Assembly (NCBI GenBank): GCA_043801745.1
Contig: JAZDLR010000016.1
Coordinates: 70,331 to 134,330, forward strand
Direction: 5' to 3'
DNA: 64,000 nt
Source: Candidatus Komeilibacteria bacterium
GTDB taxonomy: Bacteria; Patescibacteriota; Patescibacteriia; UBA1558; 2-01-FULL-52-15
The notes under the pieces were generated by a model. The model had not been told where the DNA came from, did no database searches, and saw nothing but the letters and a program-made list of their open reading frames with translations. This document shows positions 14,351 through 31,281 of this stretch, piece by piece. The first letter of the stretch is position 1. Every line of letters begins with the position of its first letter. Made by a program: the position numbers and the translations under genes.

Positions 14351-14824
14351 ATGCGCCAACGGACCTGGACCATCAATCAATTAAAAAAAGCTGTTAAAGT
14401 ATCTTTTAGTTATAGACAGGTTTTGAATAGGTTGGGGTTGCGTGAGGCTGGCGGCAACTATGACCAGTTGAAAAAATATATTGAAGAGTATAAGCTATCA
14501 ACGAAGCATTTTAAGGGCCGTGGGTGGAATAGAGGAATGCGGGGAATTGGTATAGTAAGGATCCCATTAAAAAAGATTTTAGTAAAAAATAGCACCTTTC
14601 AGAGTTATAAATTAAAAAAACGTTTATTTGCCGTTAAACTCAAACCGCAGTACTGTGAACTGTGCCATTGGGCCGAGAAAACCAAAGATGGATATTTACC
14701 ACTAGAATTGGACCATATTAATGGTGATCGTCATGATAATCGCTTGAAAAATTTAAGAATACTTTGCCCCAACTGTCATAGTCTACAACCAACACATCGA
14801 AGTAGAAAGAGACAACGAAGATAA
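14351..14824 (+). CDS. HNH endonuclease (homing-endonuclease-like)
   Basis: CELCHWAEK...LELDHINGDRHDNRLKNLRILCPNCHS is an HNH/His-Me finger with a zinc-binding Cys pair. The stop codon abuts the first base of tRNA-Leu(TAA). Confidence 0.8.
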   Translation: MRQRTWTINQLKKAVKVSFSYRQVLNRLGLREAGGNYDQLKKYIEEYKLSTKHFKGRGWNRGMRGIGIVRIPLKKILVKNSTFQSYKLKKRLFAVKLKPQYCELCHWAEKTKDGYLPLELDHINGDRHDNRLKNLRILCPNCHSLQPTHRSRKRQRR

Positions 14825-14909
14825 GCCGAGGTGGCGAAATTGGTATACGCACAGCACTTAAAATGCTGCGGAGCAATCCTTGCGGGTTCGAGTCCCGCCC
14901 TCGGCACCA
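14825..14909 (+). tRNA. tRNA-Leu (TAA)
   Basis: Anticodon loop CTTAAAA. Long variable arm. T-arm GCGGGTTCGAGTCCCGC. Encoded CCA. Confidence 0.9.
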
Positions 14910-14923
14910 CTGAATATAATAAT

Positions 14924-15445
14924 ATGAGCCTTATAACCCAGGACGATGAATTATTAGACCTTGTCGATGAAAACGACAAGGTTATTGGTTGCCAGAAACG
15001 TTCAGAGATATATGCGCAGGGTATTTCGAACTTTCGAGTAGTCAACGCTTTTTTGGTTAATTCAAATAATGAATTGTGGATACCGCGGCGTTCGGCTGAT
15101 AAAAGGATTTATCCGCTCTGTTTAGATATGAGCATGGGTGGTCACGTAGCCAGCGGAGAGACCTATGAACAAGCGTTCAAACGTGAAACCCAAGAAGAGC
15201 TAAATATTGATATCGAAAAAGCCGATGTGCGTTTACTTGGGCATCTGACGCCGGTGAAAGATGACGTGTCAGCGCATATGAATGTTTATGAAATAAAGAG
15301 TGATCAGGTACCTAATTATAATAATAATGATTTCACGGAATATTATTGGTTAACCTCAGACGCACTATTGCTTAAAATTACCGCCGGTGATAATGCAAAA
15401 AGTGATTTAGCTAAACTAGTTAAAATTTTTTACAATAACAAATAA
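14924..15445 (+). CDS. NUDIX hydrolase
   Basis: Nudix box GGHVASGETYEQAFKRETQEELNI (GX5EX7REUXEEXGU). The listed ORF start (14831) lies inside tRNA-Leu, so the internal ATG 14924 is used. Confidence 0.8.
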   Translation: MSLITQDDELLDLVDENDKVIGCQKRSEIYAQGISNFRVVNAFLVNSNNELWIPRRSADKRIYPLCLDMSMGGHVASGETYEQAFKRETQEELNIDIEKADVRLLGHLTPVKDDVSAHMNVYEIKSDQVPNYNNNDFTEYYWLTSDALLLKITAGDNAKSDLAKLVKIFYNNK

Positions 15446-15469
15446 TTATTTAGTAATATTGACGGCGGC

Positions 15470-15719
15470 ATTACTATTAAAGGAGCAGCTTGCGCTGTTT
15501 TTTATTATCCATTACACTGGTTTCATGCGCTGGGCTCCGGCAACATGTGGAGCTTATGCTACGCCGAGTTGTAGCGCGCATCTTTGCCTAGGGAAGAATA
15601 AGGCGGCCGCGTATCATGGATACACACAAACTGGTAACGGGCCGACCCCCGTAATTCTTTCCACAGCGGGATTCTTCCCAACCTCACGTTGTCTCGGCTC
15701 GCGTGAGGTTATTTTATTT
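15470..15719 (+). ncRNA. candidate ~250-nt RNA ending in an intrinsic terminator (CCTCACG...CGTGAGG + T-run at 15682-15719)
   Basis: No convincing ORF (the 93-aa ORF 15459 is low-complexity). Clear hairpin + TTATTTTATTT. Identity unknown. Confidence 0.3.
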
Positions 15720-15731
15720 CTAATGGGATTG

Positions 15732-15763
15732 ACCCTGTAAGATAATATGATATCTAACAGGGT
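15732..15763. promoter_or_regulatory. palindrome ACCCTGTAAGATA-N-TATCTAACAGGGT (variant of the CCCCGTTAGAA motif) immediately 5' of a TTGACA -35 box
   Basis: Inverted repeat seen directly. TTGACA at 15764-15769, upstream of the gam-like gene. Confidence 0.5.
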
Positions 15764-15847
15764 TGACAAATCATGGGTATCTTATTAAGGTGCCGATATT
15801 ACCTGTTCGTTTCGTTTTTTTAACAATCTAACCAAAGGAGCTGGACC

Positions 15848-16405
15848 GTGGCGAAAAAGAAAGTGGTCAAACAGCCGAAAGATCTGACCGAATTTCGTTT
15901 GGATATGGAAAGGATCGGTGAGTTGGAGCGCCAGATTGAAGGCGCGCAGTTGAATGCCGAGGATCAGATGGCGGCTATTCGCGCAAGCTTGCAACACAGA
16001 CTTGATCCTCGGGTAAAAGAACTGTCGGATCTGCTCGGCGGCTTGGTTGCCTTTGCGGAAGCTAACAAAGTCGCTCTGACTGATGCCGGCAAGTTGCGGA
16101 CCATTCAGCTCGGCGACGACAACTGGTTTGGTTGGCGCCTGTCTCCGCCCGGGGTGGAAATCCGCGGAGAAAAGGCGGTAATCAAGCGGCTTCAAGAAGC
16201 CGGGCTTGATCGTTTCATTCGTCAGACTCCGAAGATTGACCGCGAGGCCATGCTCAAGGATCGGGCAGCTGCCACGGCTGTTGTCGGAGTCAAGATCGTG
16301 CAGCGTGATGACTTGGTGATTCATCCGGCCAACCTGAATGCGGACGTGATTCCCGGACGTGGCAGTAGCTACCGCGTGGAGGGTCGGAAGAAACCGGCCA
16401 GCTGA
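15848..16405 (+). CDS. gam: bacteriophage Mu Gam-like protein (DNA-end-binding, host nuclease inhibitor family)
   Basis: ERIGELERQ...FAEANKVALTDAGKLRTIQLGDDNWFGWRLSPPGVEIRGEKAVIKRLQEAGLDRFIRQTPKIDREAML... aligns by eye with Mu Gam as recalled from memory (IGDLQRE...WCEANRDELTNGGKVKT...VSWRVRPPSVSIRG...LGLQRFIRTKQEINKEAIL). GTG start after AAAGGAG. GC-rich. Confidence 0.8.
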   Translation: MAKKKVVKQPKDLTEFRLDMERIGELERQIEGAQLNAEDQMAAIRASLQHRLDPRVKELSDLLGGLVAFAEANKVALTDAGKLRTIQLGDDNWFGWRLSPPGVEIRGEKAVIKRLQEAGLDRFIRQTPKIDREAMLKDRAAATAVVGVKIVQRDDLVIHPANLNADVIPGRGSSYRVEGRKKPAS

Positions 16406-16422
16406 ACCAAGGAGGTTGTCCG

Positions 16423-16608
16423 ATGATACTTAGGGGCATGGTGGTTCTCTTCGTTCTGGTCGTGGGTGCCTTGCTGGGCGCGATTGCTGACTCGGCCCTG
16501 CACATCAGCTGGGAGCATTGTTCTTTCAAGGCCCAGATGACACACAAGTTGATGTATACACTGTGGGGTGCGATCATTGTGCTGATCGCCGGCCTGGTTA
16601 AGGTATAG
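16423..16608 (+). CDS. small two-TM membrane protein (holin-like size)
   Basis: 61 aa with two hydrophobic helices. RBS AAGGAGG before the ATG. Followed by the terminator at 16628-16667. Confidence 0.45.
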   Translation: MILRGMVVLFVLVVGALLGAIADSALHISWEHCSFKAQMTHKLMYTLWGAIIVLIAGLVKV

Positions 16609-16627
16609 ATTGAGAGCATGATGTTTC

Positions 16628-16667
16628 CACCGCTCCGGCGACTCGTCGGGGCGGTGCTTTATTTTTT
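16628..16667 (+). terminator. intrinsic terminator (CACCGCTCCGGCG...CGGGGCGGTG + TTTATTTTTT)
   Basis: Hairpin and T-run seen directly. Confidence 0.6.
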
Positions 16668-16682
16668 GACTACAAAGTTGGG

Positions 16683-17435
16683 GTGCCGTACAATGGCAGT
16701 ATGTCAGTATCAAAGGGACGGATTATAGTTATTATCACAGCTCTGTTTATTTTGGCAGTAATTGTGGTTACCAGCCGGGCGTTATTTTCTACCGGACAGG
16801 TGGTGCCTAATTTTTTTATGGTGCCCAAAGTGTTAATTTCTTCCGCGATTAAACTGGATAAAATTTACAGCGACACCAGTAATAAGTTAACTTGGCGCTA
16901 TCCTAGTGATTGGCTGGTGCAAGATAGTAGTCAGGAAGCCAAGCCAACACCATTTAAAGCGCAACAACTGCTTAGCGTAGATCCTCGGTTACCATTTGTG
17001 GAAATCAGTCATGTGATGATCAGCAGTCAGAACTACCCCTTGGAATGTCAGAACACTGATCCGTCACTGGAAGCTTGCGCCGGCCGATCACTGATAACCG
17101 GGGGCTTTCTGGATTTACATGTGATGTATCACCGTGAAGTCACGATGGCAGATATTATGGCTACAGCGACAACAACTTGGGTCAGTAGTGGTGCCATTAG
17201 TGAGTCGCCAATTAAATTGGCTGGACGCGCCATTTATGAGTGGAACGGTTTAAATTGCGGTCCAAAATGTTATATTTTACGGGCCCTGATTATTCCCCTG
17301 GGAGAGCATACAACTATACAACTATTTGCCAATGTTTACGTTAATGAAAATCTTAATCAGCAAGATTTGGCCAATACTTTGCGGTCTTACCAAGAACAGC
17401 TGGACGCTATCATCGCCAGCCTGACAATACAATGA
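16683..17435 (+). CDS. hypothetical N-terminally anchored exported protein
   Basis: N-terminal TM (IIVIITALFILAVIVV). No known motif. Coupled (ATGA) to capA. Confidence 0.55.
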   Translation: MPYNGSMSVSKGRIIVIITALFILAVIVVTSRALFSTGQVVPNFFMVPKVLISSAIKLDKIYSDTSNKLTWRYPSDWLVQDSSQEAKPTPFKAQQLLSVDPRLPFVEISHVMISSQNYPLECQNTDPSLEACAGRSLITGGFLDLHVMYHREVTMADIMATATTTWVSSGAISESPIKLAGRAIYEWNGLNCGPKCYILRALIIPLGEHTTIQLFANVYVNENLNQQDLANTLRSYQEQLDAIIASLTIQ

Positions 17436-18550
17436 GTACGGCAAAACGCTGGATTATTTGTGGGGGGATATTGGTGGTGTTAATTATTATTAATGTTTTT
17501 TATTTACTTAATATACCGACCAGCCGGAAAGTCAAAGCTCCTGGCAGACAGTTTATGGTGCAGCAGGCTGAAGCGCCCCAGCAACTAGCACAGCCCAAAG
17601 ACGAAACCATTACTCTATTAGCAGTTGGCGATATTATGCTGTCGCGTAATGTGGCCGCGACTCTTAAAAAGGAAAATGATCTGCACTATCCTTTTTCATC
17701 TTTACAGCCGTTAATTTCGCGGGCCGATATTGCTTTTGGTAATTTAGAATCACCGATTACACCCGGTCCGGTGATTCAGACCGGATCCTTTACCTTTCAC
17801 GCTGACCCGGGCATTGAGCAGAGCCTGGCTTGGGCCGGATTTGATGTTTTGTCTTTAGCTAATAATCACTTTCCTAATTACGGTGCTAAAGGAATTGCTG
17901 ATACCAGAAATTTATTAGATCAGGCCGGAATTAGATATACCGGTGCCGGTGCTAATATTGAGCAGGCCTTAACACCGGCCATTAGGGAAGTTTGCGGTAA
18001 AAAGTTCGGCTTTCTGGCTTTTAATGACGGCGATGTAGTACCGACAGCTTATGGCGCAACTAAAAAAAACGCCGGAACAGCTTTAATGAATGTAGATACT
18101 CTGAAACAAGCCGTAACCAGTTTACGGCCGCAAGTTGATTATGTGATTGTGTCTATGCATTCAGGCACGGAATATTCGGCTGTTCCGAATCAGCGGCAAA
18201 TTGATTTTGCTCACGCGGCCATTGATAATGGCGCGGATTTAGTCATTGGCCATCATCCACATGTAGTTCAGAGTATAGAAAAATATCAGGGCAAGTACAT
18301 TTTATATAGTTTGGGTAATTTTATTTTTGATCAGATGTTTTCTACCGAGACACGCCAAGGATTAATGGCCGAAATCAGTTTTGATGATCAGGGTGTTAAT
18401 GATATTGTTCTTTTACCCACACAGATTGAAAATTATAGTCAGCCGCAAATTTTAGATTTAACTAAAGCCGGAGATATTCAAAGAAGATTAAAAATTTCAT
18501 TAGCCACTACGACGCTGGATAACTTTTCTGTTTGGAGAATTGACAAATAA
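17432..18550 (+). CDS. capA: CapA/PgsA-family metallophosphatase-like protein (poly-gamma-glutamate capsule synthesis family)
   Basis: LAVGDIMLSR, GNLES, ANNH, HSGTEY, GHHPHVVQ and YSLGNF motifs of the CapA (YwtB) family. Confidence 0.75.
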   Translation: MSTAKRWIICGGILVVLIIINVFYLLNIPTSRKVKAPGRQFMVQQAEAPQQLAQPKDETITLLAVGDIMLSRNVAATLKKENDLHYPFSSLQPLISRADIAFGNLESPITPGPVIQTGSFTFHADPGIEQSLAWAGFDVLSLANNHFPNYGAKGIADTRNLLDQAGIRYTGAGANIEQALTPAIREVCGKKFGFLAFNDGDVVPTAYGATKKNAGTALMNVDTLKQAVTSLRPQVDYVIVSMHSGTEYSAVPNQRQIDFAHAAIDNGADLVIGHHPHVVQSIEKYQGKYILYSLGNFIFDQMFSTETRQGLMAEISFDDQGVNDIVLLPTQIENYSQPQILDLTKAGDIQRRLKISLATTTLDNFSVWRIDK

Positions 18551-18603
18551 CTACCGTGAGATAAGATGGCGTGTGTGCAGTTCGTTTTTCAGGAGGGAGG
18601 CCT

Positions 18604-18891
18604 ATGAAAACTCGTTATTTTGTAGGGATAAGAAAGGATAGTACAGAACCAGAGGTTTTTCGGGCTACTACTGGAGAGAGCTTGACCGCCGGATATCCTG
18701 CTGAAGGAGAACAGATTGCCCCCAGTTACGCAGTGGGAAGGGTGAAGATACTGGCAATCTTGCCCAAAGAGACCCAGCTGCTCCTTCGCTTTGTAGAAGC
18801 AGTTGACGAGATCATGGGTAACCATGCGTTTAGGGATGGTCTACTTGTACTTCTTCGGGCTATTTCCAGTGCGAGTGCTGGCTCTCTCTAA
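18604..18891 (+). CDS. hypothetical protein (GC-rich islet)
   Basis: ATG after AGGAGGGAGG. Followed by the intrinsic terminator at 18914-18952. Confidence 0.45.
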   Translation: MKTRYFVGIRKDSTEPEVFRATTGESLTAGYPAEGEQIAPSYAVGRVKILAILPKETQLLLRFVEAVDEIMGNHAFRDGLLVLLRAISSASAGSL

Positions 18892-18913
18892 TAGCATCGG
18901 GAGGTCGGAGCGT

Positions 18914-18952
18914 GACCCCATCGAGCACTACTCGGTGGGGTCATTTTTTTTA
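18914..18952 (+). terminator. intrinsic terminator (GACCCCATCGAG...CTCGGTGGGGTC + T9)
   Basis: Hairpin and T-run seen directly. Confidence 0.65.
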
Positions 18953-19445
18953 TATTATTTAGAAAAAACGATCATATCAAAGATGTTAATGTGGAAATTT
19001 TTAATGCGGTTGAATTCATTAGAAATTGACCAAAATTTTCTACCGAATTTGACAAATAATTTGCGCGCGAAAAATCAGCTTGCTAAAATACAGTTGTAAA
19101 GCAGTATTTTTTTGCTGCTGAAGACGGCGCAAAATATTTAGCATCAGCAAGAAAATATTAATTTGCGGGAATTTTTTCCGTCAGACAGGAAAATAGACGG
19201 CGGAATAATTTCGGGATAACCCGCGTTCGGCTGGGTAAATAACCAAACACCCTATCCGAAGACGGGGTGTTTGGGAAAAGCGATTGTGAAGACTATCTTT
19301 TATGATAGCCCTCATTTGCATACTAAAATATTCGTTGTTCTTTGTCAAAGGACGGTTCTCCTCCCTCAATCGAGACCTGAGGGAGGAGAAATCCGGTCCT
19401 AATATTTACTAATTAAGCCCTTGCGGGCATTAACGAAAAGCGATT

Positions 19446-19847
19446 ATGGACTTAAATAAAGTCACTTTGATCGGCAATATGGTCAAAGATCCGGTGTTAC
19501 GTAAAACACCAAGCGGTCAATCACTGGTCAGCACCGGTTTGGCCACTAATTATGTTTGGAAAGATCTTCAATCCAAACAAACTAAGAAGTCAGTGGAGTT
19601 TCATAATGTCGTGGCCTGGGGCAAGTTGGCCGACATCATGAGCGAATATCTGAAAAAGGGCTCCAAGGTTTATATTGAGGGCCGTTTGCAGAGCCGTAAC
19701 TGGACGGATAAGACCGGCAAAAAAAGATATTCCACGGAAGTGGTGGCCGAAGATTTAATAATGCTGGGTCATCGAAATAAAGAAAGCAAAGAGAGCACAG
19801 CTAAGGCTTTAGCCAAAGAAGAACCGGCCGTCGAGGACTTGGAATAA
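19446..19847 (+). CDS. ssb: single-stranded DNA-binding protein
   Basis: OB-fold pattern VTLIGN...EFHNVVAWGKLAD...VYIEGRLQSRNW...EVVAEDL and acidic C-terminal tail (EDLE). Confidence 0.85.
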   Translation: MDLNKVTLIGNMVKDPVLRKTPSGQSLVSTGLATNYVWKDLQSKQTKKSVEFHNVVAWGKLADIMSEYLKKGSKVYIEGRLQSRNWTDKTGKKRYSTEVVAEDLIMLGHRNKESKESTAKALAKEEPAVEDLE

Positions 19848-19950
19848 TCAGCAACGTTGTTGTTTTGAGCTTGAGCCGGAAGTTTCGTCCCTGTTCTTCC
19901 GGTTTTTGCTCAAGACAGGCGTTAGGTTTAATAATTAGAAATAAAGAATT

Positions 19951-22320
19951 ATGAAAAAAATAATTATTATTTTCTGGCTGCTACTTTTTCCCTTTCTAGC
20001 TCAAGCCCAAATGATCTTTACTGAAATTATGTACGATCCGGCGGGGGCAGATGGCGGTAATGAATGGGTAGAGGTCTATAACAACGCCGCTGATCCGGTA
20101 ACTCTTGACTCTGGTTGGCGTTTTACAGATAGCAGCAACCATACTTTGAATTTAACTCAAGGCACGTCAACAATCGCCGTTGGTCAATTTGCTATAATCG
20201 CTGATAATGCCACGAATTTTTTAACCGCTAACCCGGTGTTTTCCGGTAATCTTTTTGATTCGGTTGTTAATATCAACAATAACTCCTCCACTATCGCCCT
20301 GAAAAATAATAACGAACCAATTGCCAGTCTAATCTTTGATTCTGGCTGGGGCGCGGCAGGCAATGGCATGACTCTAGAAAAAATTAACTTTGATGGTGGC
20401 GATGAACAAGGTAATTGGCAGGAATCGTTCGTTAATGGTGGCACTCCAGGGCGGGCTTCGTCGGTTAAGCCGGAATCATTAGCAACCACCACCATTGAAT
20501 ATTCAGGATTGAGGATCAACGAAATGTTGCCTGATCCGGTCGGTGATGATGCTGCCGGAGAATGGATCGAACTGGTAAATAATTCTGATCTGGACTTGCC
20601 CCTGGTTGGAGTAATAATTACAGACGGTTCAGGATCAAACTATATTTTTGCTTCCAGTACCATAGCAGCAAAAAATTATTGGCTCTTATCGCGGCCCATT
20701 TCTGACATTGCTTTAAATAATAGTAGCGACACTTTAACATTGAAAGATCCGCAGGGAGCCACAATTGATGCGGTTTCTTATACCGGCAGCGTGGAAGGTA
20801 AATCCTGGGCTTTGATTGATAATCGTTGGATCTGGTCGCGGCAGCCGACTCCAGGTGCTGCAAATATTTTACCTCTTAATCATAAACCAGAGATCGGCTA
20901 TTCCATTAGTTCTCTGACGGCCGAGCCTAAAAAAAGTATTTTGTTCGATGCTTCAACCTCGCGTGATCAGGATGGAGACGAACTGACTTATTATTGGGAT
21001 TTTGGCGACAATGATTTTAGTAACCGGAAAAGCATCAGTCATAAATATGCCGATGAAGGTGAATATCTTACTTTGTTACGAGTACAAGATTCGTCCGGAG
21101 CTTTAGCAGAACAAACTTTTAAAATCACAATTATGTCCGCTGTTTCGGCCGCCAAATCTATGGAGACCGCCCAGATAACCAGCCAAACCACCAGCGCCAC
21201 TACAACCGGCTCTTTGTCTGACACAGTCAAGATTAGCGAGTTTTTACCCGACCCTGTTGGCAACGATAATAGTGAGTGGATCGAACTATATAATAGCGGG
21301 GACGCGGACGTTATTTTGGATAATTGGAAGCTGGATGATATTGAGGGTGGCAGCCGGCCCTTTATTTTTCCTCAAGGAACAGTCATTAAACCGGGCGAAT
21401 ATCAAGTTTGGTCCAAAGCAGCAACCAAACTGGTATTGAATAATACGACCGATGGTGTCCGATTACTCTGGCCTGATGGACAGGTGAGTGATTCTATTGA
21501 CTATGATGCGACTAAGAAGGAGGGGCAATCATACGAAAAAAATTTTGCTGATGACGAGTGGCAGTGGCAAACAGTTCCTACGCCCGGACTACCTAGAATA
21601 GAAGTTTTAGGATTAGAAACTACCAGTCAGCCAGTGGCCACCTCATCGGATTTGATTTTGCCTGCCAACAGTATCATGGCGCGGGTTATTGTTCCGCCCG
21701 GAACCTGGGCTAAGCAGAAAATGTTTGTGCGTTTAGTTGGCGCTGACAGTTGGGCCGAGGTTTATCAATATAAAGGACAGTTCCCAGAAATTAAATCAGG
21801 CGACATAATTGTTGTCAGTGATGCGGTAATTGGCAGTGTTTCCGGAACACCCAGATTAAAAATAGCCGGAGCAGATCAGATTGCGGTCACCGGTCACGAC
21901 GACATTATTTGGGATGAACCGATTAATATTTCCAGCCTGTCTGATAATGATGTAGGTAGCACAATAACCTTGGCCGGCTTGATTGATACCAGCAACAAGT
22001 CATCTCTTACGTTGGTTGATGATGAAGGCGAAACTATTAAGGTTACTTTAGCGCCGAATAATACGGTCCCATTGACCAAGAATGTACGCGCGACTATCCA
22101 CGGTATCTTACAGAAAAATTCTACCGGCTTGTATCTGCGGTTGATTTCTAACAATGACGCCACTTTGGATGAACAGGTCGGGATCGTTCAGCAGACAACA
22201 ACATCAACAACCACGACCCTTCCGGCCCAAACCAAGGACTGGTCCGGTTGGATTGCCGGAATAGTAACCGCGTTTGGTGGATTGGCTTACGCCGGATATA
22301 AATGGTGGTTTGTTAAATAA
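19951..22320 (+). CDS. large secreted surface protein with three lamin-tail (LTD) domains, one PKD-like domain and a C-terminal TM anchor
   Basis: Signal peptide. LTD signatures FTEIMYDPAG...NEWVEVYN, RINEMLPDPVGDDAAGEWIELVN and KISEFLPDPVGNDNSEWIELYN. PKD motif YYWDFGDND. C-terminal WIAGIVTAFGGLAYAGYKWW. Confidence 0.75.
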   Translation: MKKIIIIFWLLLFPFLAQAQMIFTEIMYDPAGADGGNEWVEVYNNAADPVTLDSGWRFTDSSNHTLNLTQGTSTIAVGQFAIIADNATNFLTANPVFSGNLFDSVVNINNNSSTIALKNNNEPIASLIFDSGWGAAGNGMTLEKINFDGGDEQGNWQESFVNGGTPGRASSVKPESLATTTIEYSGLRINEMLPDPVGDDAAGEWIELVNNSDLDLPLVGVIITDGSGSNYIFASSTIAAKNYWLLSRPISDIALNNSSDTLTLKDPQGATIDAVSYTGSVEGKSWALIDNRWIWSRQPTPGAANILPLNHKPEIGYSISSLTAEPKKSILFDASTSRDQDGDELTYYWDFGDNDFSNRKSISHKYADEGEYLTLLRVQDSSGALAEQTFKITIMSAVSAAKSMETAQITSQTTSATTTGSLSDTVKISEFLPDPVGNDNSEWIELYNSGDADVILDNWKLDDIEGGSRPFIFPQGTVIKPGEYQVWSKAATKLVLNNTTDGVRLLWPDGQVSDSIDYDATKKEGQSYEKNFADDEWQWQTVPTPGLPRIEVLGLETTSQPVATSSDLILPANSIMARVIVPPGTWAKQKMFVRLVGADSWAEVYQYKGQFPEIKSGDIIVVSDAVIGSVSGTPRLKIAGADQIAVTGHDDIIWDEPINISSLSDNDVGSTITLAGLIDTSNKSSLTLVDDEGETIKVTLAPNNTVPLTKNVRATIHGILQKNSTGLYLRLISNNDATLDEQVGIVQQTTTSTTTTLPAQTKDWSGWIAGIVTAFGGLAYAGYKWWFVK

Positions 22321-22371
22321 GAAACGCCGCCGAGCAAAGCTCGACGGCGTAGGTGTTCTGGTCGACTCAGA

Positions 22372-22908: not shown

Positions 22909-22944
22909 CCCCGTTAGAAGTTTAATTGAAATGTTCTAACGGGG
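22909..22944. promoter_or_regulatory. palindrome CCCCGTTAGAA-N14-TTCTAACGGGG upstream of murD promoter (TTGACC at ~22955)
   Basis: Perfect 11-bp inverted repeat arms. Confidence 0.55.
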
Positions 22945-22989
22945 TCAATAGCATTGACCAATGTTGGGTTTTTTTCTAAGCTAAGACCG

Positions 22990-24336: not shown

Positions 24337-24378
24337 AAATTATATCCCCGTCGAGCTGAGCCCGGCGGGGATATTTGG

Positions 24379-25104: not shown

Positions 25105-25152
25105 AGAATAATCTTTTTCTGCAAAAGTTCAAGGGGCGAGCAGTTGAGACGA

Positions 25153-26154
25153 CTAAATTTTGTCCTTACTTTCAGAAAAATAGATATTGTCTTGAGGTAA
25201 TCCCAGTACCGTTAATTTATCAATCAGCCAGGATTTCATGGCAATTTCCGTATCGAAATTAATTGGCTGGCCGTCAACTATAGCTGTCCAACGGTTAACG
25301 CTGCGTAAGACATCCATTTTGTTGATGACTAGATGATTGACGGCGTTCAGCCGGATGCCTTTTTCCAGAAGATTCCAATCTAACCAATTACATTGGCGGG
25401 CACGGCCAGTAGTGGCGCCGTATTCTTCGCCGGCTTCACGGATTTTGACGAAAATAGAATCGTCCGGCTCAAATTTTTTGGCTCCCACATAGGTTTCATA
25501 AATTTTCACTACACCCCAGACATCTCTGATGGCAGTGTGAGGAAGGGCATTCATTAGCGCGCCAGCTACAGTGGCATGAGAAGAGGTGACATAGGGGTAA
25601 TCACCCCAGTCAATATCTAAGCCGAAACCTTGCGCGCCCTCACCTAAGACATAAACTTCTTTAGGATTATGATGCAGCTCCTGATACAAATCAAGCAAAT
25701 AAGGTTGTAATTCCGGCACTGCTTCGGCACGGATTCCGGTGCGGGCGTATTTATCACGGTAAGCCGGACCATTGCCGGTTTTCGTCGTGCCAATGGAACT
25801 GTCAGCGCTGTCTTCTTTTAAATGTTCCTCGGTAATAACGTGAGTGTTGTTAGCAATAAAAATTTTACCTTCAGTATTTATGCCGCCGCCCTGTAATTCT
25901 TTTAACTCAGACAGAAATTTTTTCGGGTTGACTACACAGCCAGGACCAATAATTGACTTGATACCGAAAAAAACACCAACTGGAATGTGGTGCGTGATAA
26001 ATTTTTTACCCTCGTGAAAAATAGTATGGCCGGCATTACCGCCGCCATTGTAGCGGAGGACGTGAGTATAACCGGCGGTTTTACAAAGATGATGAGCGAC
26101 CTTGCCTTTGGCGCAATCGCCGTATTGCAGGTCTACAATGATGTCAGCAATCAT
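25153..26154 (-). CDS. purA: adenylosuccinate synthetase
   Basis: DLQYGDCAKGK P-loop variant, NGGGNAGHTI and GTTKTGNGPAY motifs. Confidence 0.9.
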   Translation of the reverse strand: MIADIIVDLQYGDCAKGKVAHHLCKTAGYTHVLRYNGGGNAGHTIFHEGKKFITHHIPVGVFFGIKSIIGPGCVVNPKKFLSELKELQGGGINTEGKIFIANNTHVITEEHLKEDSADSSIGTTKTGNGPAYRDKYARTGIRAEAVPELQPYLLDLYQELHHNPKEVYVLGEGAQGFGLDIDWGDYPYVTSSHATVAGALMNALPHTAIRDVWGVVKIYETYVGAKKFEPDDSIFVKIREAGEEYGATTGRARQCNWLDWNLLEKGIRLNAVNHLVINKMDVLRSVNRWTAIVDGQPINFDTEIAMKSWLIDKLTVLGLPQDNIYFSESKDKI

Positions 26155-26163
26155 AATGTGGAA

Positions 26164-26820
26164 TTAGATATTGTTTAGTTCTTTATTTATCTTTCTATAA
26201 TGCCAGGCAAACCAAATCCCCCCGATTAAAGTGACCGCCGACAAGAAAATAAAAAGTGGATCGGTGGCCGACTTAACGCCGCTTCCAAGATAGGCCAGAG
26301 ATAGACTGCCACTGACGTGGCCAAGCGCCATTAGCGGTAAAAAGATTTTAGGTTTTATGGCCGACAGTCCGGCTAAATATGATATTTCATCATCAGGGAA
26401 CAACGGCAGAAAATAGGCAAGGAACAGTAGCAGTTTGCCCTTATCAAAATAATAGTCATACTTGGCTATTGTTTCCGGTTTGACTACGTGTTGAATAATT
26501 TTGCGACCAAAATATCTACCAAGATAGAACGCTATGGCTGTCCCCAGTACCCGCCCAATAAAGTTGTAAAGAAAACCCAGCCAGGTACCAAAGAGAAAAC
26601 CACCGGCCAATGAGACCGAATAATGACTGATCGGCGTAATGACGACCTGGGCGATTTGCAGAAGTATAAAAACCAGGGGAGAAAATATTCCAAAATGATT
26701 GACAAAATCTCTGATGGTCTCCTGGCTTCCGAAAAATTGCGAAGGGAAAATATAGCCAATAATCAATAGAGCAATTGGCGCCAAGGTAAAGAGATACCAG
26801 ATTAATCTAATTTTTTTCAT
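26164..26820 (-). CDS. TVP38/TMEM64 (DedA-like) family membrane protein
   Basis: Multi-TM protein with the YFLPLFPDDEISYLAG motif typical of the DedA/SNARE-associated family. Confidence 0.75.
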   Translation of the reverse strand: MKKIRLIWYLFTLAPIALLIIGYIFPSQFFGSQETIRDFVNHFGIFSPLVFILLQIAQVVITPISHYSVSLAGGFLFGTWLGFLYNFIGRVLGTAIAFYLGRYFGRKIIQHVVKPETIAKYDYYFDKGKLLLFLAYFLPLFPDDEISYLAGLSAIKPKIFLPLMALGHVSGSLSLAYLGSGVKSATDPLFIFLSAVTLIGGIWFAWHYRKINKELNNI

Positions 26821-26821
26821 A

Positions 26822-26850
26822 ATTGCAGGTCCACAATGATGTCAGCATGC
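26822..26850. repeat. direct repeat of the purA 5' end (second copy of ATTGCAGGTC[T/C]ACAATGATGTCAGCA; first copy at 26122-26149)
   Basis: 27 of 29 nt identical. The two copies bracket the dedA-like gene exactly. Confidence 0.7.
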
Positions 26851-27066
26851 GTAATTCGAGTATATTTTTTTATCCTTACCAAGTGTAACGGTAAAATAGT
26901 TCCAAGACAAGCTGATTTGGGGTTGTATCTTGACAAATTCAATTAGTTATGTTAATTTCTCATATTACTCTTGCATTGGCGCTTGCCTTTGCGAATGGTG
27001 TACATTTCCATATTTTCTATTCAATTTTTCCGTTTCTACCTCCCAACCTCATAAGGAGACTGGCCG

Positions 27067-28386
27067 ATGAATACAATGGCTCTACCGGGAATGTTTCCTC
27101 AGATCAAGCCTGGGGAAGTGTACGCTGATTGGACTGGGTCGGCTATTCCGCCGATCCATTTGATCGATCAGCATCATAAGTATTTGGGGGAGAACCTGAT
27201 CGGTAACCCGCACTCTCATCACCGACCGTCAGCTGAGGCGATGGAACGGGTTATGAGTACTCGGGCAGCGATCTTGCGTTATCTCCATGCTTCGCCCGAG
27301 GAGTACGAGGTGATTTTCGGTCCTGGTGCGACTGCTGCCATCCAGTTGGTGGGACAGCACTATAAGTGGGAGGGCGGCGAGTATCTGCTGACTGCCGACA
27401 ACCACAATTCCGTTAACGGAGTACGTGAAATGGCCAAACGCAATGGCGCAGTCGTCAGGTATGCTCCCATTACTGACGATCTGGTCATTGATGGCAACAT
27501 GCTAAGACGGATGCTGCGATTTCCGCGGTCTACTGGTAACAAGCTGTTTGCCTATCCGGCCAAGTCCAACTACTCCGGTGTGCTGCACAGTTTGGAGTGG
27601 GTCGGTCTGGCTCAGAGTCTGGGCTGGGAAGTGCTTCTGGATGCTGCGGCGTTTAACGCCAATAAGCGACTGGACCTTTCAGTCGTCAAGCCGGATTTTG
27701 TCCCGTTCTCTTTTTATAAGATGTTCGGGTTTCCGACCGGCCTTGGTTGTTTGGTCATCCGCAAGAGCGCTTTTGCCAAGCTGGCGCACAAGTGGTTCGC
27801 CGGTGGGTCTATTCTGTTGGTGGCTGTCATGCAGGACTTCTATGCTCCGGAATCTCTGGGGTATGCGAGGTTTGAACATGGTACCATCAACTTCGGTCAG
27901 ATTCCGGCTATTCAGACCGGTCTTCAGTTCATGGAGGACCTGGGGGATGGCGTTGGCGGGCATGCTGTTGATTTGGCTACCGCCCTCTACGATGAACTCG
28001 TGAACATGAAAGAGAATAGTTGTTCATTGCTGGTTCACAGCCCGCGTGGAACCGATACCGTTACCTTCAGTATGAAGAGCGGTGACCAGATCGTGGATGC
28101 TTGGGTATTTGAACAGGAAGCCAGTAAGCGCGGAGTGTTTGTTCGTTCGGGCTGCTTCTGTAACCCGGGTGTGAATGAAAAGGTGTTTGGGTACGGCATC
28201 GAGGCTTACGCTAATCTCTACAACGACGCCATCTTGCCGGAGGCCATCACCATTGAAAAGCTCCGGGAGTTTTCCGACGGAAAGCCAATCGGCGCTATCC
28301 GCGCGTCGTTCGGCTACGCCAACACAGTAGCTGATGTGGTGCGGTTTGCGTCTGTCACGCGGGATATCCTGCGCGCCGAAAAGTAA
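27067..28386 (+). CDS. class-V aminotransferase-fold PLP enzyme (MOCOS/NifS-like sulfurase family)
   Basis: GNPHSHHRPS...VIFGPGATAAIQLVG...LLDAAAF...SFYKMFGFPTGLGCLVIRK resembles the N-terminal domain of Mo-cofactor sulfurases and cysteine desulfurases. GC-rich. Confidence 0.65.
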   Translation: MNTMALPGMFPQIKPGEVYADWTGSAIPPIHLIDQHHKYLGENLIGNPHSHHRPSAEAMERVMSTRAAILRYLHASPEEYEVIFGPGATAAIQLVGQHYKWEGGEYLLTADNHNSVNGVREMAKRNGAVVRYAPITDDLVIDGNMLRRMLRFPRSTGNKLFAYPAKSNYSGVLHSLEWVGLAQSLGWEVLLDAAAFNANKRLDLSVVKPDFVPFSFYKMFGFPTGLGCLVIRKSAFAKLAHKWFAGGSILLVAVMQDFYAPESLGYARFEHGTINFGQIPAIQTGLQFMEDLGDGVGGHAVDLATALYDELVNMKENSCSLLVHSPRGTDTVTFSMKSGDQIVDAWVFEQEASKRGVFVRSGCFCNPGVNEKVFGYGIEAYANLYNDAILPEAITIEKLREFSDGKPIGAIRASFGYANTVADVVRFASVTRDILRAEK

Positions 28387-28557
28387 ACCGCTGTATTTAC
28401 CGGGGGGGATGGTCTTATCACCATCTCCCCCAACCTCTGTCGATTATTTCGGCACTGACGAGCCCAAAGGCACAAGCTAAAGGGTGAAAGGTTATAGGAT
28501 TGTTGGTCTAATAGACAGCAAACGTACGTTGATATTTCTCTAACCAAGGAGCACGCC

Positions 28558-29154
28558 ATGAAACCCGGTTTTTTTTCGGTAGGGAGTTTCATTGCTCAGC
28601 TGCCGACTCTGGTGGCTGGCCGCCGCTCGCTTTTTGCTTTGTTCAGCACTTACAATACGGTGGGCGGCCATCGGGATGGTCTGGTTGAGACGGGAATGGC
28701 CGATCTGTCGGTCATTGTTTCGGCTGGGGGGTATAAGATGAGTCTGGCATCGCTGATGGCAGCCACTACTGCCATGCAAGCCGGCAGCCGGGCCATCGCC
28801 CATGCGATCTTCGATGCCTCCCACGCTCAGGCTGCGGAAATTCAGCAGGAGGTGGGCCAGGAAGCGCAAACGGTCCTTGCAGAGGCGACTGACGATATCC
28901 TCGCCATCGTCTATGCGGGCTACAGTGCCTTCAATGCGGCGTTGGAGTTTGCCCAAAGGCTTCATTCCCAGCATCCGCGGGCGCAGGTGTATGTTCTGAC
29001 CTGCGATTGTGACCAGACCCGCAAGCAAGTCGAGTTGCGGTCCGCCATCGACGACGGTCTCATCACCGGCGCGATCGAGACCTGGAAATGCGGTGGGGTT
29101 TCGGACATGGGCGATCTTCTGGAAGCGCTGATCAGCGCCTGGAAGGCACGCTGA
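28558..29154 (+). CDS. hypothetical protein (GC-rich, paired with the MOCOS-like gene)
   Basis: AAGGAG RBS before the ATG. The antisense 213-aa ORF 28540-29181 is judged spurious (GC-rich antisense). Confidence 0.5.
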   Translation: MKPGFFSVGSFIAQLPTLVAGRRSLFALFSTYNTVGGHRDGLVETGMADLSVIVSAGGYKMSLASLMAATTAMQAGSRAIAHAIFDASHAQAAEIQQEVGQEAQTVLAEATDDILAIVYAGYSAFNAALEFAQRLHSQHPRAQVYVLTCDCDQTRKQVELRSAIDDGLITGAIETWKCGGVSDMGDLLEALISAWKAR

Positions 29155-29228
29155 TTGAAGAGGTGACAAGTAAGCGGCCACTCGGTTTACCGGGTGGCCG
29201 CTTTAAAATACAAAAAAAGTCAGGGACT

Positions 29229-29861
29229 CTATTTTTTTTCTTTTATTTGTCCATCTAATCCGCCGTAATTTATAGCGGGAAGAGCGATCTCGTTAAATCT
29301 AGGATCGGCTTGTTTAGGAATCGGCGCAGTTATGTCTTTCATTTTTGGGCTTCCGGGCTTTACTGGTTCCTGCCTGATTACTTGTATATGGATGTCTCCA
29401 CCGACAAAGCCAAGCGTAACGTGAAAATCTTTCGGGGGCAGTCCGTGTTCAGAGCGAAATTTTTGCAGCGCGGGTATTTCGAAGGAAACAAAAGTAGTCT
29501 TTTTCACCTTATCTACTTCTCGCATTTGCTGTTCGGTAGCAGCTCCGTCAATGAAACCAAGCCCCATTACTGTAATACCCTGGCCATTTTGTAGGTCGGT
29601 ATTAATTTGCTGAAGTTCAGCTAGTGCTTCATCATCTAACGTGCTCAAAATTTTGCTCTCGGTAGGACTAATAATTGTTAAATGATAACCATCGGCCCTG
29701 GGCTGAAGGTCAGCGCCAGTAATAGTCTTTACGGCTTCTAGCGCCGGCGTGAAATCTGCCTGTATTTCTATTTCTAGGGTTTGCATATCGGCCAGACGCT
29801 CGCGGGTTAATTCGGGCGCTTTCTTTAGCAGTTCATCCGTACTCCATTCATGATTTGTCAT
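29229..29861 (-). CDS. 2H phosphoesterase superfamily protein (LigT/2',5'-RNA-ligase-like)
   Basis: Two H-x-T-x motifs (GYHLTII and FHVTLGF) spaced ~90 aa apart, as in LigT-like cyclic phosphodiesterases. Confidence 0.5.
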   Translation of the reverse strand: MTNHEWSTDELLKKAPELTRERLADMQTLEIEIQADFTPALEAVKTITGADLQPRADGYHLTIISPTESKILSTLDDEALAELQQINTDLQNGQGITVMGLGFIDGAATEQQMREVDKVKKTTFVSFEIPALQKFRSEHGLPPKDFHVTLGFVGGDIHIQVIRQEPVKPGSPKMKDITAPIPKQADPRFNEIALPAINYGGLDGQIKEKK

Positions 29862-30052
29862 AATAAAATCTATTAATTTATTAAATCTGCGTCAATTGTA
29901 ACAGGTTGGTGTTGGAGCAGCAATATAGATAATTGACTTCTGTCGCAAAATACATTATAAAATAGTGGCTATTCATTGAAATCGGCCAGAGTTCCTCCGT
30001 CTGCCAACTGGCGGAGCGGGCAGGGGCGAAATTGACTTCGTACTTAGTTTGA

Positions 30053-30137
30053 GGGCGAATGGTGAAATTGGTATACACGCTAGCTTTAGGAGCTAGTGGC
30101 GCAAGCCGTGAGAGTTCGAGTCTCTCTTCGCCCACCA
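30053..30137 (+). tRNA. tRNA-Leu (TAG)
   Basis: Acceptor GGGCGAA/TTCGCCC. Anticodon loop TTTAGGA. Long variable arm. T-arm GAGAGTTCGAGTCTCTC. Encoded CCA. Confidence 0.85.
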
Positions 30138-30198
30138 TGTCTGTGCAGGACAGGAGAATTCGTCTTCCTAAGCAAGCTCTTTTGCACAATATTAGTTT

Positions 30199-30222
30199 GG
30201 GTTCGTAGCTCAGATGGTTAGA
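30199..30222 (+). pseudogene. tRNA-Val 5' half (GGGTTCGTAGCTCAGATGGTTAGA, positions 1-22) followed by GC-rich trailer CCCGCCCGCCATGCTTCGC
   Basis: Identical D-arm to the intact tRNA-Val 60 nt downstream. Ends between D-stem positions 22 and 23. Confidence 0.6.
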
Positions 30223-30281
30223 CCCGCCCGCCATGCTTCGCTGCTTAAAATAATAATTAATAAAATTAACCAACTGTCCAT

Positions 30282-30358
30282 GGGAATGTAGCTCAGATGG
30301 TTAGAGCGCTACATTGACATTGTAGAGGTCACAGGTTCGATTCCTGTCATTCCCACCA
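30282..30358 (+). tRNA. tRNA-Val (GAC)
   Basis: Acceptor GGGAATG/CATTCCC. Anticodon loop TTGACAT. T-loop GGTTCGATTCC. Encoded CCA. Confidence 0.9.
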
Positions 30359-30397
30359 TTGGTAGTCTGGCCCGCACAGCATGGCGAAGCGGGCGGG

Positions 30398-30452
30398 GCG
30401 CTACATTGACATTGTAGAGGTCATTCCGCCGCTGGCGGGACATCGCCCACCA
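30398..30452 (+). pseudogene. tRNA-Val 3' fragment (GCGCTACATTGACATTGTAGAGGTCA...CCCACCA) preceded by leader GCACAGCATGGCGAAGCGGGCGGG complementary to the trailer at 30223-30241
   Basis: Anticodon arm identical to tRNA-Val(GAC). T-arm degenerate. The 3' end resembles that of tRNA-Leu(TAG). Confidence 0.5.
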
Positions 30453-30521
30453 TTAGCCGATATATGTAATTTAACAACTCGACGGTATTGACATGGAAGC
30501 GGTCTATAGTACAATAGTCTT

Positions 30522-31214
30522 ATGAGACCTTATTCATACAACTCTTTGAAGGCGCCAGTTATGGCTTTACGACGAAGAGGGAAAACGTACGCCGAGATTT
30601 GTGCGCATTTACAGGTTCCGATTGCAAAAAGCACCATCTCCTATTGGTGTAAGGATGTGAAGCTCACCAAACAATCGAAGCAACAACTAAAGCATCGTGT
30701 AGAAACGCATCTAGCTAAGCAAAGGGTTTTGGCGTTAAAAGCTAATATTGCCAGGAGGAATAGGTATTTAAAAGAAGTTGATAAACGGGTTTCACATTTG
30801 GGTTCTCACCTAAAAAACAGAAGCGTGGGAAAAATAGTTTTGTCCATACTTTATTGGTGCGAAGGGAAGGGTTCGCAAAGCAGTTCCTTAACATTTGGTA
30901 ACTCAAACCCAGAAATTATTAAGCTATTCTTATCAGTTCTTAGAAAGAATTACGACATAGATGAAGCAAAGTTTCGTTGCACACTACAAGGAAGAGCTGA
31001 CCAAGGAATTAGGGAATTGGAAAAATATTGGTCAACGGTCACTGAAATACCATTGTCACAATTCTATAAGGCACGAATTGATCCGCGGTCAGCAGGCAAA
31101 ACTTCAAGAAAGAAAAACTATAAAGGCGTTTGTAGGATAGATTACTTTTCTGCAGATATCTTTCATGAATTAAAAGCAATACAAAAAAGTTTAATTAAAA
31201 ATATGGGCCTGTAG
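30522..31214 (+). CDS. LAGLIDADG-like homing endonuclease with N-terminal HTH
   Basis: KIVLSILYWCEGKGSQ followed by TFGNSNPEIIKLFLSVLRKNY resembles a degenerate LAGLIDADG block and its following helix. Basic HTH-like N-terminus. The 3' end overlaps tRNA-Ala by 10 nt. Confidence 0.5.
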   Translation: MRPYSYNSLKAPVMALRRRGKTYAEICAHLQVPIAKSTISYWCKDVKLTKQSKQQLKHRVETHLAKQRVLALKANIARRNRYLKEVDKRVSHLGSHLKNRSVGKIVLSILYWCEGKGSQSSSLTFGNSNPEIIKLFLSVLRKNYDIDEAKFRCTLQGRADQGIRELEKYWSTVTEIPLSQFYKARIDPRSAGKTSRKKNYKGVCRIDYFSADIFHELKAIQKSLIKNMGL

Positions 31215-31281
31215 CGCAGTTGGTTAGCGCGTTTGCATGGCATGCAAGAGGTCGAGGGTTCGAATCCCTCCAGGTCCACCA
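31205..31281 (+). tRNA. tRNA-Ala (GGC)
   Basis: G3:U70 pair in the acceptor stem. Anticodon loop ATGGCAT. T-loop GGTTCGAATCC. Encoded CCA. Confidence 0.85.

Follow-up and report, generated by a model that had tools for sequence, protein, structure and literature searches.

A 64-kb stretch of DNA (the window; contig JAZDLR010000016.1) from Candidatus Komeilibacteria, a group of the Patescibacteria (candidate phyla radiation, CPR; ultra-small bacteria), carries three small nuclease-type genes that are each associated with a tRNA gene, as seen by comparing ARAGORN and Rfam tRNA calls with the open reading frames (ORFs), and these pairings of nuclease-type gene and tRNA recur in hundreds of related genomes. 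The genes encode an HNH endonuclease ending against tRNA-Leu(TAA), a protein of 230 amino acids whose gene runs into tRNA-Ala(GGC), and a GIY-YIG nuclease downstream of tRNA-Val(TAC). On balance, the evidence leans towards a reading in which three unrelated families of nuclease-type cassettes exploit Patescibacteria tRNA genes in two ways, as sites of insertion or homing and as a platform for expression. Homing appears well supported by sequence comparison for the HNH gene, the homing or selfish reading is plausible by analogy for the 230-residue family, and it is weakest of the three for the GIY-YIG gene. An earlier annotation made from the letters of the window alone (the sequence-only reading) had described homing endonucleases of the HNH, LAGLIDADG-like and GIY-YIG families beside tRNA genes; the linkage to tRNA genes is upheld in relatives (78/79, 60/61 and 8/8 loci, respectively), and the HNH and GIY-YIG assignments are supported by Pfam matches above threshold.

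The window contains ten tRNA genes on which ARAGORN and Rfam agree. Relatives of the HNH gene were collected by scanning one genome per species (352 found, the best 80 of which were examined) and relatives of the 230-residue gene by scanning metagenomes (349 found, the best 80 examined); the peptide-pattern searches used for both are biased toward intact copies. The relatives' loci that were compared with the window carry L-numbers (e.g., L009 or L176), and non-redundant counts are those from which near-identical copies have been removed.

The HNH gene and tRNA-Leu(TAA)

The HNH gene (14351-14824, plus strand) encodes 157 amino acids. Its TAA stop codon (14822-14824) ends at base -1 of tRNA-Leu(TAA) (14825-14909, plus strand; ARAGORN and Rfam), which is its constant downstream partner, and its upstream neighbor in the window is tRNA-Gly(GCC) (14023-14097, plus strand; ARAGORN, and Rfam tRNA at 70 bits), an arrangement described in the sequence-only reading with the same coordinates for the HNH gene. 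The match of the protein to Pfam HNH_3 (PF13392) is marginally above threshold (25.7 bits, cut-off 24.8) and that to PF01844 is below it (19.5 bits, cut-off 21.4). PHROG 10822 matches across the whole 157-residue protein (E=3e-42), the PADLOC model 'HEase' (homing endonuclease) matches with E=2.9e-17, and the HNH motif, read from the translation, is intact (C102-E-L-C105, D121-H122, N124/N130/N134, C139-P-N-C142-H143). More than 4100 homologs at 70-81% identity were found. These matches identify the protein as a true HNH endonuclease, of the type represented by hegA/F-Tfl of phage T5.

Among the species genomes examined, tRNA-Leu(TAA) follows the HNH gene on the same strand in 78/80, with gaps of -54 to +47 nt, and one of the two exceptions had no downstream sequence; counted without redundancy, the gene ends at or inside tRNA-Leu(TAA) in 78/79 evaluable loci. 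The upstream neighbor varies (Cys, Gly, Lys, Ser, Gln or Trp), with tRNA-Cys(GCA) present in 42 of the 53 loci having an upstream tRNA and tRNA-Gly(GCC) in 4. In approximately 35 of the 78 genomes (L013-L092) the HNH frame stays open up to the tRNA and reaches 1-54 nt into tRNA-Leu(TAA), and several frames terminate 36-37 nt into it, near the anticodon loop.

Loci that had been collected via the 230-residue gene, and are thus unbiased with respect to the HNH gene, were surveyed for empty sites. The HNH gene is missing at tRNA-Leu(TAA) in 5/5 independent Patescibacteria loci, and in 4 of the 5 a tRNA-Cys lies only 6-13 nt upstream of tRNA-Leu(TAA). The existence of such HNH-free tRNA-Cys/tRNA-Leu pairs in other Patescibacteria makes the HNH gene a presence/absence polymorphism, not a gene universally conserved at a fixed position (the finding that the sequence-only reading had named as speaking against mobility), and the short spacers mark the cassette as an insertion, ~530-600 nt long, between two tRNA genes that otherwise almost adjoin. 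In comparisons of the same genome pairs, the median identity of the HNH protein is 65.8%, versus 41.9% for flanking proteins, and HNH identity is above flank identity in 624 of 638 comparisons (Spearman rho 0.28). It stays near 65% over flank identities of 25% to 70%, and in close relatives it can fall below the identity of the flanking proteins. This pattern is suggestive of a history decoupled from that of the host (i.e., horizontal spread), a pattern to which strong purifying selection could contribute. Additionally, partial duplicates of tRNA genes lie upstream of the HNH gene in some relatives, comprising the tRNA-Cys 3' end (L026 and L033) or the first 29 nt of tRNA-Leu (L054), which supports the association with disrupted tRNA loci proposed from the window alone.

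Three further observations concern this locus and family. A stretch ~73 nt before the HNH start (14255-14277, ..gactacaattattccgcgcctc) resembles a tRNA-Cys 3' end (..GGCCTC), and the alignment is too weak to claim a decayed tRNA-Cys there. The record titles of many contigs with the HNH/tRNA-Leu pairing (L013, L015, L016, L019, L063, L065, L070, L074 and others) name metagenome-assembled genomes of 'uncultured Gammaproteobacteria', 'Bdellovibrionales', 'Omnitrophica' or 'Nevskiaceae', which could reflect mislabelled or mis-binned CPR DNA or a genuine presence outside Patescibacteria. A defence system was considered and discarded: the PADLOC matches are confined to generic HNH models (ZorE, HEase), the 230-residue and GIY-YIG proteins match none of its models, and no partner genes of such a system are present.

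The 230-residue family and tRNA-Ala(GGC)

The second gene (30522-31214, plus strand), described here from homologs, alignments and AlphaFold models, belongs to an uncharacterised Patescibacteria family. It overlaps its constant downstream partner tRNA-Ala(GGC) (31205-31281, plus strand; ARAGORN and Rfam) by 10 nt, as the sequence-only reading had noted, and the 5' end of the tRNA encodes its last codons, G-L-stop. tRNA-Ala(GGC) follows the gene in 76/80 metagenomic loci, where overlaps of 10 nt (29 loci) and 15 nt (14 loci) are the most frequent and three of the other four loci have no downstream sequence, and in 60/61 non-redundant loci. The upstream neighbors vary (Arg-CCT, Ile-TAT, Glu-TTC, Val-GAC and Lys-TTT), and the gene often starts ~36 nt past the upstream tRNA. 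tRNA-Ala(GGC) without the gene was found in L009 and L176. Identity within the family is 65%, versus 52% for flanking proteins (rho 0.47), a milder version of the pattern seen for the HNH gene. In one copy (L125:2950-3700), intact in all other respects, a conserved Ser codon is replaced by an in-frame TAG, which may reflect either a sequencing error or recent pseudogene formation.

Diverged paralogs recovered from the collected loci with a hidden Markov model (HMM) of the family end -10 to +17 nt from another tRNA, which is Gly(GCC) at five independent loci, Arg(TCT) at one and Arg(CCT) at one (L098:3930-4589, L134:901-1557, L162:2435-3079, L048:4072-4752 on the minus strand, L081:201-884, and L077:4489-5367 and L038:550-1245, both on the minus strand). 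Their identity to the 230-residue family is 26-32% where tblastn detected them, the rest being found via the family HMM only, and one tRNA cluster (in L098) holds two members of the family. An exhaustive profile search returned 4105 clusters at E<=1e-3 and 250 at E<=1e-30, numbers that fit a large superfamily with many sub-families.

The protein begins with a homeodomain-like helix-turn-helix (HTH; approximately residues 6-42), continues as a long helix over residues 50-98 and closes with an alpha/beta domain at the C-terminus (100-228), and ten residues are kept in at least 90% of members (E114, G115, K117, R158, D160, Q161, D187, R189, Y200 and G202). In Pfam, HTH_SB matches 22 of 32 homologs and HTH_23 is above threshold in one paralog, and the N-terminus resembles the PAI subdomain of Sleeping Beauty (E=0.002). 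The LAGLIDADG-like assignment made in the sequence-only reading finds no support in Pfam, NCBIfam, the PDB or Foldseek, apart from sub-threshold hints. The window protein has no Pfam or NCBIfam match, phmmer and profile searches of PDB sequences returned nothing for the C-terminal domain, and Foldseek searches of the PDB and BFVD with two confident AlphaFold models of the family (pLDDT 90.7 and 90.2) left that domain unplaced, with no LAGLIDADG structure among the matches; the BFVD matches are non-significant and include a homing endonuclease and kinds of protein that often carry inteins. The hints amount to sub-threshold LAGLIDADG_2 or LAGLIDADG_3 matches (E ~0.01) in 4/42 relatives: LAGLIDADG_2 in 3 of 32 homologs (best E=0.012) and LAGLIDADG_3 in one of ten distant homologs examined (E=0.012; 16.2 bits, cut-off 22.5). 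None of three paralogs examined matches a LAGLIDADG family in Pfam. A near-invariant L-Y-[LW]-x-E-G-x-K (LYWAEGDS in paralogs) closes the helix at 100-114, and hhalign places it on the second LAGLIDADG motif of I-SceI with E=0.055 and a probability of 1%; the same program found no alignment of the family with I-CreI. LAGLIDADG membership is accordingly rejected as an assignment, with no significant match in Pfam, NCBIfam, PDB sequences, hhalign or Foldseek, and is kept only as a lead; the label LAGLIDADG should be avoided in annotating the family.

Promoters precede both this gene and the HNH gene at close range. The 230-residue gene has a sigma-70-type promoter (TTGACA, 16 nt, TACAAT; 30488-30515, plus strand; 11 of 12 positions in the promoter scanner) that ends 6 nt before its ATG, and TTGCAC-17-TACGAT/TACAAT precedes the gene in 49 of 63 relatives. 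The HNH gene has a promoter-like element (putatively TTGCTT, 17 nt, TGaTAAGAT; 14316-14344, plus strand), read from the sequence and not called by the consensus promoter scanner in the window, that likewise ends 6 nt before the ATG; ..TTGATATAAT followed by 6-9 nt precedes the ATG in 55 of 81 HNH relatives. Since these elements end 6-9 nt before the start codons, the sequences suggest that both mRNAs are leaderless. Each of the two ORFs fills the space between two tRNAs, and both genes would be co-transcribed with the downstream tRNA. RNase P has an established function in tRNA 5' processing. As the transcript must run on into the downstream tRNA, cleavage by RNase P would set the 3' end of the mRNA, and where the ORF overlaps the tRNA the cut at the tRNA 5' end would strip the stop codon.

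Just upstream of the 230-residue gene in the window sits a nested tRNA-Val locus (30197-30460, plus strand; read from the sequence), which consists of a 5' tRNA fragment, CCCGCCCGCC.., a complete inner tRNA-Val(GAC) (30282-30358, plus strand), ..GCGGGCGGGG and a relic formed by the 3' two-thirds of a tRNA-Val. The same nested architecture occurs with tRNA-Val(CAC) in an unrelated Patescibacteria contig (L009:730-972), and the order shared by the two is 5' fragment, CCCGCCCGCC..GCTTCG, complete tRNA-Val, ..AAGCGGGCGGG and 3' two-thirds relic. The anticodon arm of the relic is that of the inner complete gene in each genome (GAC in the window, CAC in L009), and the outer acceptor halves are unpaired, so that the outer sequences are relic-like rather than a split tRNA. 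An 11-mer of this locus, CCATGCTTCGC, occurs three times in the window (27285-27295, 30231-30241 and 47631-47641). The sequence-only reading was right that this motif of the Val trailer recurs beside the GIY-YIG gene, although it had placed that copy at 47628-47640 and had missed the one at 27285-27295.

The GIY-YIG gene and its leader

The third gene (47314-47559, minus strand) encodes 81 amino acids; the plus strand across these coordinates contains stops. The protein matches Pfam GIY-YIG (PF01541) at 65.2 bits (cut-off 22.6) over profile positions 1-71 of 78, and 506 homologs at 60-81% identity, mostly of 80 amino acids, were found; given these lengths, it consists of the catalytic domain only. 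The closest solved structures are UPF0213 (1zg2, E=2e-4) and SLX1 (E=0.008), and the PHROG match is negligible (E=0.004). The label 'excinuclease ABC subunit C' is wrongly given to some of the 80-residue proteins. An in-frame upstream ATG at 47583, inside the leader motif described below, would extend the protein to 89 amino acids and was rejected as the start, as the frame and stops differ among loci and the extension is not conserved as an ORF in relatives.

The sequence-only reading had this gene directly abutting tRNA genes. It does lie between tRNA-Ala(TGC) (46951-47026, minus strand; ARAGORN and Rfam) and the tRNA-Val(TAC)/tRNA-Leu(GAG) pair (47681-47849; ARAGORN and Rfam), but it touches neither: the start is 121 nt downstream of tRNA-Val(TAC) (47681-47757, minus strand; ARAGORN and Rfam), the tRNA upstream of the cassette, and tRNA-Ala(TGC) is 290 nt downstream of the gene. 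An ORF of 89 amino acids lies between the GIY-YIG gene and tRNA-Ala(TGC) (47032-47301, minus strand; from the ORF list), with two predicted hydrophobic stretches and only a sub-threshold match to a LiaI-LiaF-like transmembrane family in Pfam. Among relatives, a same-strand tRNA stands 27-189 nt upstream of the GIY-YIG gene in 8/8 independent contexts with upstream sequence, and the tRNA differs from context to context (Val-TAC, Ala-GGC twice, Leu-CAG, Leu-CAA, Ile-TAT, Gly-TCC and Ser-CGA). At a distant GIY-YIG gene (in L082), 17 nt of the tRNA-Gly 3' end are repeated so as to flank the gene.

The space between tRNA-Val(TAC) and the GIY-YIG gene is occupied by a structured leader (47560-47684, minus strand) that is common to six close relatives (72-100% identical) and comprises a hairpin (P1) that takes in the CCA end of the tRNA, a second hairpin (P2) interrupted by an internal loop, some variable sequence and the motif CGAATGGCACAGCC (47573-47586, minus strand; motif search). 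RNAalifold applied to the six leader sequences gives 25 pairs, 5 of them with compensatory changes; P1 pairs with the encoded CCA of the tRNA. The P1-P2 part (47626-47684, minus strand) scores 66.6 bits with covariance model R1, and the leader has no match to any Rfam family. The motif CGRATGGCACRGCC is specific to the GIY-YIG cassette, with every occurrence but one adjoining a GIY-YIG gene. The sole exception is a solo leader in L009 (978-1088; P1-P2 plus CGAATGGCACGGTC) that follows the tRNA-Val relic, closes with a hairpin resembling an intrinsic terminator and has no GIY-YIG ORF; it may be what is left of a cassette since lost, or else a small RNA in its own right.

The idea that the whole leader is a GIY-YIG-specific RNA was abandoned, the P1-P2 hairpins having proved non-specific. 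GC-rich two-hairpin trailers of the same type, starting from an encoded CCA, occur in the window (14094-14199, 34546-34627 and 38371-38445) and in relatives (L008:2401-2489 and 2575-2659; L013:2748-2852). The first of these is the trailer of tRNA-Gly(GCC) (plus strand), a weak match to model R1 (21 bits, E ~0.003), and other weak matches are the copies flanking the 23S and 5S rRNA genes. Trailers of this type have no match in Rfam. The occurrence of P1-P2 at tRNAs without a GIY-YIG gene means that it may be an ordinary tRNA trailer or a general trailer of RNA genes, and such trailers may serve these bacteria generally as a processing or termination structure of stable-RNA genes. The 23S rRNA gene itself (34601-37819) spans 3219 nt, versus a model of 2925 positions, and from this difference it probably carries ~300 nt of insertions; 5S rRNA follows at 38205-38322, and Rfam detects no 16S rRNA gene anywhere in the 64 kb. 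Such a picture is typical of CPR bacteria.

Proposed homing, its rivals and known systems

The HNH cassette consists of the promoter-like element and the 157-residue gene, placed in the spacer of a few nucleotides 5' of tRNA-Leu(TAA), normally after tRNA-Cys. The enzyme would nick or cut cassette-free alleles at or near the tRNA-Cys/tRNA-Leu junction, and repair from a cassette-bearing copy would then copy the HNH gene in. Near-universal tRNA sequences would serve as target and as homology arms, which would explain the spread of the gene across classes. The 230-residue protein would be a site-specific protein acting on DNA in an HNH-like mode, probably a nuclease whose LAGLIDADG-like type is either new or diverged in the extreme; the selfish reading is based on the constant position, own promoter, HTH domain, empty sites and the way each sub-family keeps to one tRNA. 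The GIY-YIG cassette would comprise the leader from the tRNA CCA end plus the 80-residue domain, and its mobility would show in its following different tRNAs; here the variable tRNA partner and the conserved leader support a selfish reading. Mobility is further supported by remnants of tRNA genes read as scars, namely the partial tRNA-Cys and tRNA-Leu duplicates before some HNH genes, the 17-nt tRNA-Gly repeat at the GIY-YIG gene of L082 and the tRNA-Val relics beside the 230-residue gene in the window. A bolder version can be put forward only tentatively, and is rather doubtful: the 230-residue protein would found an unrecognised superfamily of tRNA-gene-specific homing nucleases, with a new fold or a LAGLIDADG fold derived beyond recognition, in which every sub-family keeps to the region 5' of a single tRNA gene (Ala-GGC, Gly-GCC, Arg-TCT or Arg-CCT, with others likely to exist in the ~4100 clusters); like the HNH and GIY-YIG cassettes, its members would be expressed as leaderless mRNA-tRNA co-transcripts with a 3' end made by RNase P, and tRNA genes would be the main highway of selfish-gene exchange in Patescibacteria.

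Several observations weigh against homing. The genes are almost always intact, with no premature stop in 80 HNH copies and an in-frame TAG in 1 of ~83 copies of the 230-residue gene, and both proteins are very conserved, features that would suit an active selfish element and a gene of benefit to the host equally well. Empty sites of the 230-residue gene are known from two genomes only, no relatives of this gene were detected in the INPHARED phage genomes or by a pattern scan of IMG/VR, and profile and Foldseek searches detected no similarity of its C-terminal domain to any nuclease. The GIY-YIG protein has no DNA-binding domain, its nearest solved relatives are structure-specific or function-unassigned rather than homing enzymes, and a pattern scan of IMG/VR found no relatives of it; moreover, the P1-P2 covariance model matches tRNA trailers that have no GIY-YIG gene (twice in L008, in L013 and at L009:978). 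A phage origin of the 230-residue and GIY-YIG genes was also considered and set aside on these searches of viral collections (INPHARED for the former only, IMG/VR for both).

The main rival is host function or domestication, an explanation considered unlikely overall, in which the genes are inherited vertically within tRNA operons as tRNA regulators, DNA repair or maintenance proteins or defence nucleases, and their adjacency to tRNA genes reflects co-transcription. The HTH and the unassigned domain of the 230-residue protein, which is without a nuclease signature, could make it a transcription factor acting on its own promoter. Besides the intactness and strong conservation of nearly all copies, this explanation is favored by the conservation of the promoters and even of their spacer sequences, by the moderate tracking of host divergence in the 230-residue family (rho 0.47), by the similarity of the HNH domain in PADLOC to ZorE defence nucleases (E=1e-11), and by the co-regulation of an HNH gene with the cyanobacterial tRNA arrays beside which it lies (PMC8421152). 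It fits poorly, however, with the HNH gene, which is missing at tRNA-Leu(TAA) in all five independently sampled genomes, shows an almost flat identity of ~65% at any host divergence that sometimes lies below that of the flanks in close relatives, and has phage homologs classed as homing endonucleases. The paralogs of the 230-residue gene, each in cis with a different tRNA, form the pattern that selfish genes linked to their targets should show and that a factor acting in trans would hardly explain, and partial tRNA duplications at cassette borders also speak against it.

Alternatively, the tRNA could be cargo, with gene and downstream tRNA moving together and the nuclease spreading an accessory isoacceptor, as has been suggested for T4 SegB and for HNH genes beside horizontally transferred tRNA arrays; this is judged distinctly improbable. 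The constancy of the downstream tRNA against a variable upstream neighbor in both the HNH and 230-residue families is in keeping with it, as are the physical overlap of ORF and tRNA, the co-transfer of flanking tRNA genes by SegB (PMC2330249) and the position of an HNH gene upstream of long tRNA arrays (L-arrays; PMC8421152). However, tRNA-Leu(TAA) and tRNA-Ala(GGC) exist without the genes at comparable positions, which makes the tRNA independent of the cassette, and empty sites keep the same tRNA-Cys/tRNA-Leu pair, a sign that only the ORF was inserted. The cell probably cannot dispense with tRNA-Leu(TAA), which reads UUA/UUG. Chance adjacency or an artefact of ORF calling in a compact, tRNA-rich genome (ten tRNA genes per 64 kb, and an HNH score barely over the Pfam threshold) is given virtually no credence in view of thousands of conserved homologs and of pairings that recur in 78/79 and 60/61 non-redundant loci and in 8/8 GIY-YIG contexts.

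For the homing reading, the comparison with phages that had been suggested from the window alone is direct in the case of the HNH gene, whose phage relatives lie in tRNA arrays, and is not borne out for the GIY-YIG protein, which has no DNA-binding domain. The phage T5 hegA/F-TflI/II/IV group belongs to the same protein family as the window HNH protein (PHROG 10822, E=3e-42, whole 157 residues), and T5 hegA, which is 39% identical to it over residues 66-156, is located 24 nt after tRNA-Ile2 in the T5 tRNA gene region. Akulenko et al. are said to have described the F-Tfl enzymes in 2004 as site-specific nickases. A homolog annotated F-TflIV in an Enterococcus phage lies between tRNA-Asn and tRNA-Ser, and gp149 of Gordonia phage GodonK begins 4 nt past tRNA-Leu and runs 10 nt into tRNA-Glu at its other end. 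In contrast to these genes, which are scattered through phage tRNA arrays, the window HNH gene is in a bacterial chromosome and is tied to one tRNA, Leu(TAA), in 78/79 loci; it is also shorter than hegA (157 versus 227 amino acids), lacking its extra HTH domains.

The stand-alone UPF0213/YhbQ proteins share the minimal single-domain architecture of the GIY-YIG protein, although the Patescibacteria clade (60-81% identical internally) is only distantly related to them, and we know of no tRNA linkage or conserved leader for UPF0213 proteins. GIY-YIG homing enzymes of the I-TevI/Seg type join the catalytic domain to a separate DNA-binding domain, unlike the window protein. T4 SegB is the product of a free-standing GIY-YIG gene in a tRNA cluster that cuts near or within tRNA genes of SegB-less phages and drives preferential inheritance of the tRNA region (PMC2330249); it is a full-length enzyme with a DNA-binding part, whereas the window protein is a bare catalytic domain nearest UPF0213/SLX1. 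Among bacteria, an HNH gene is conserved upstream of the horizontally transferred L-arrays of cyanobacteria and other bacteria and has been proposed to promote the horizontal spread of tRNAs (PMC8421152). That gene (all8564; compared by description) resembles the window HNH gene as a bacterial HNH gene of homing-endonuclease type linked to tRNA genes, but it flanks up to 43 tRNA genes, whereas the window cassettes are single, stand between two ordinary tRNAs and are specific to one tRNA. Additionally, homing endonucleases of CPR bacteria have been described from rRNA insertions only, as LAGLIDADG and GIY-YIG enzymes (PMC11270868, PMC8172020), a parallel in the same organisms of selfish nucleases on highly conserved RNA genes, in an account whose text nowhere contains the word 'tRNA'. 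Those enzymes are encoded within rRNA genes, often in group I/II introns, and include LAGLIDADG members, whereas the window genes are free-standing and outside intact tRNA genes, and the 230-residue family reaches no LAGLIDADG threshold.

In the literature covered, with subscription journals outside that coverage, no description was found of tRNA-linked nuclease genes in Patescibacteria, nor of the HNH/tRNA-Leu(TAA), 230-residue/tRNA-Ala(GGC) or GIY-YIG/tRNA-3'-end linkages in these bacteria. The 230-residue family is uncharacterised, and its function is inferred from context only. If the reading of tRNA genes as homing sites is true, the cassettes may be a source of compact, diverse site-specific nucleases, with one family lacking known fold relatives and with targets that can be guessed from position, as well as a marker of horizontal exchange among mostly uncultured organisms and a testable case of protein-coding mRNAs that owe their ends to tRNA processing. 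For tRNA clusters, homing endonucleases are already established in T4, and the T5 tRNA region has annotated HNH genes; as free-standing genes in tRNA clusters they are a phage phenomenon (T4 SegB, T5 HNH enzymes), and the Patescibacteria cassettes would represent this phage strategy at work on a large scale across the chromosomes of an entire phylum of bacteria, with a strict specificity of one gene to one tRNA.

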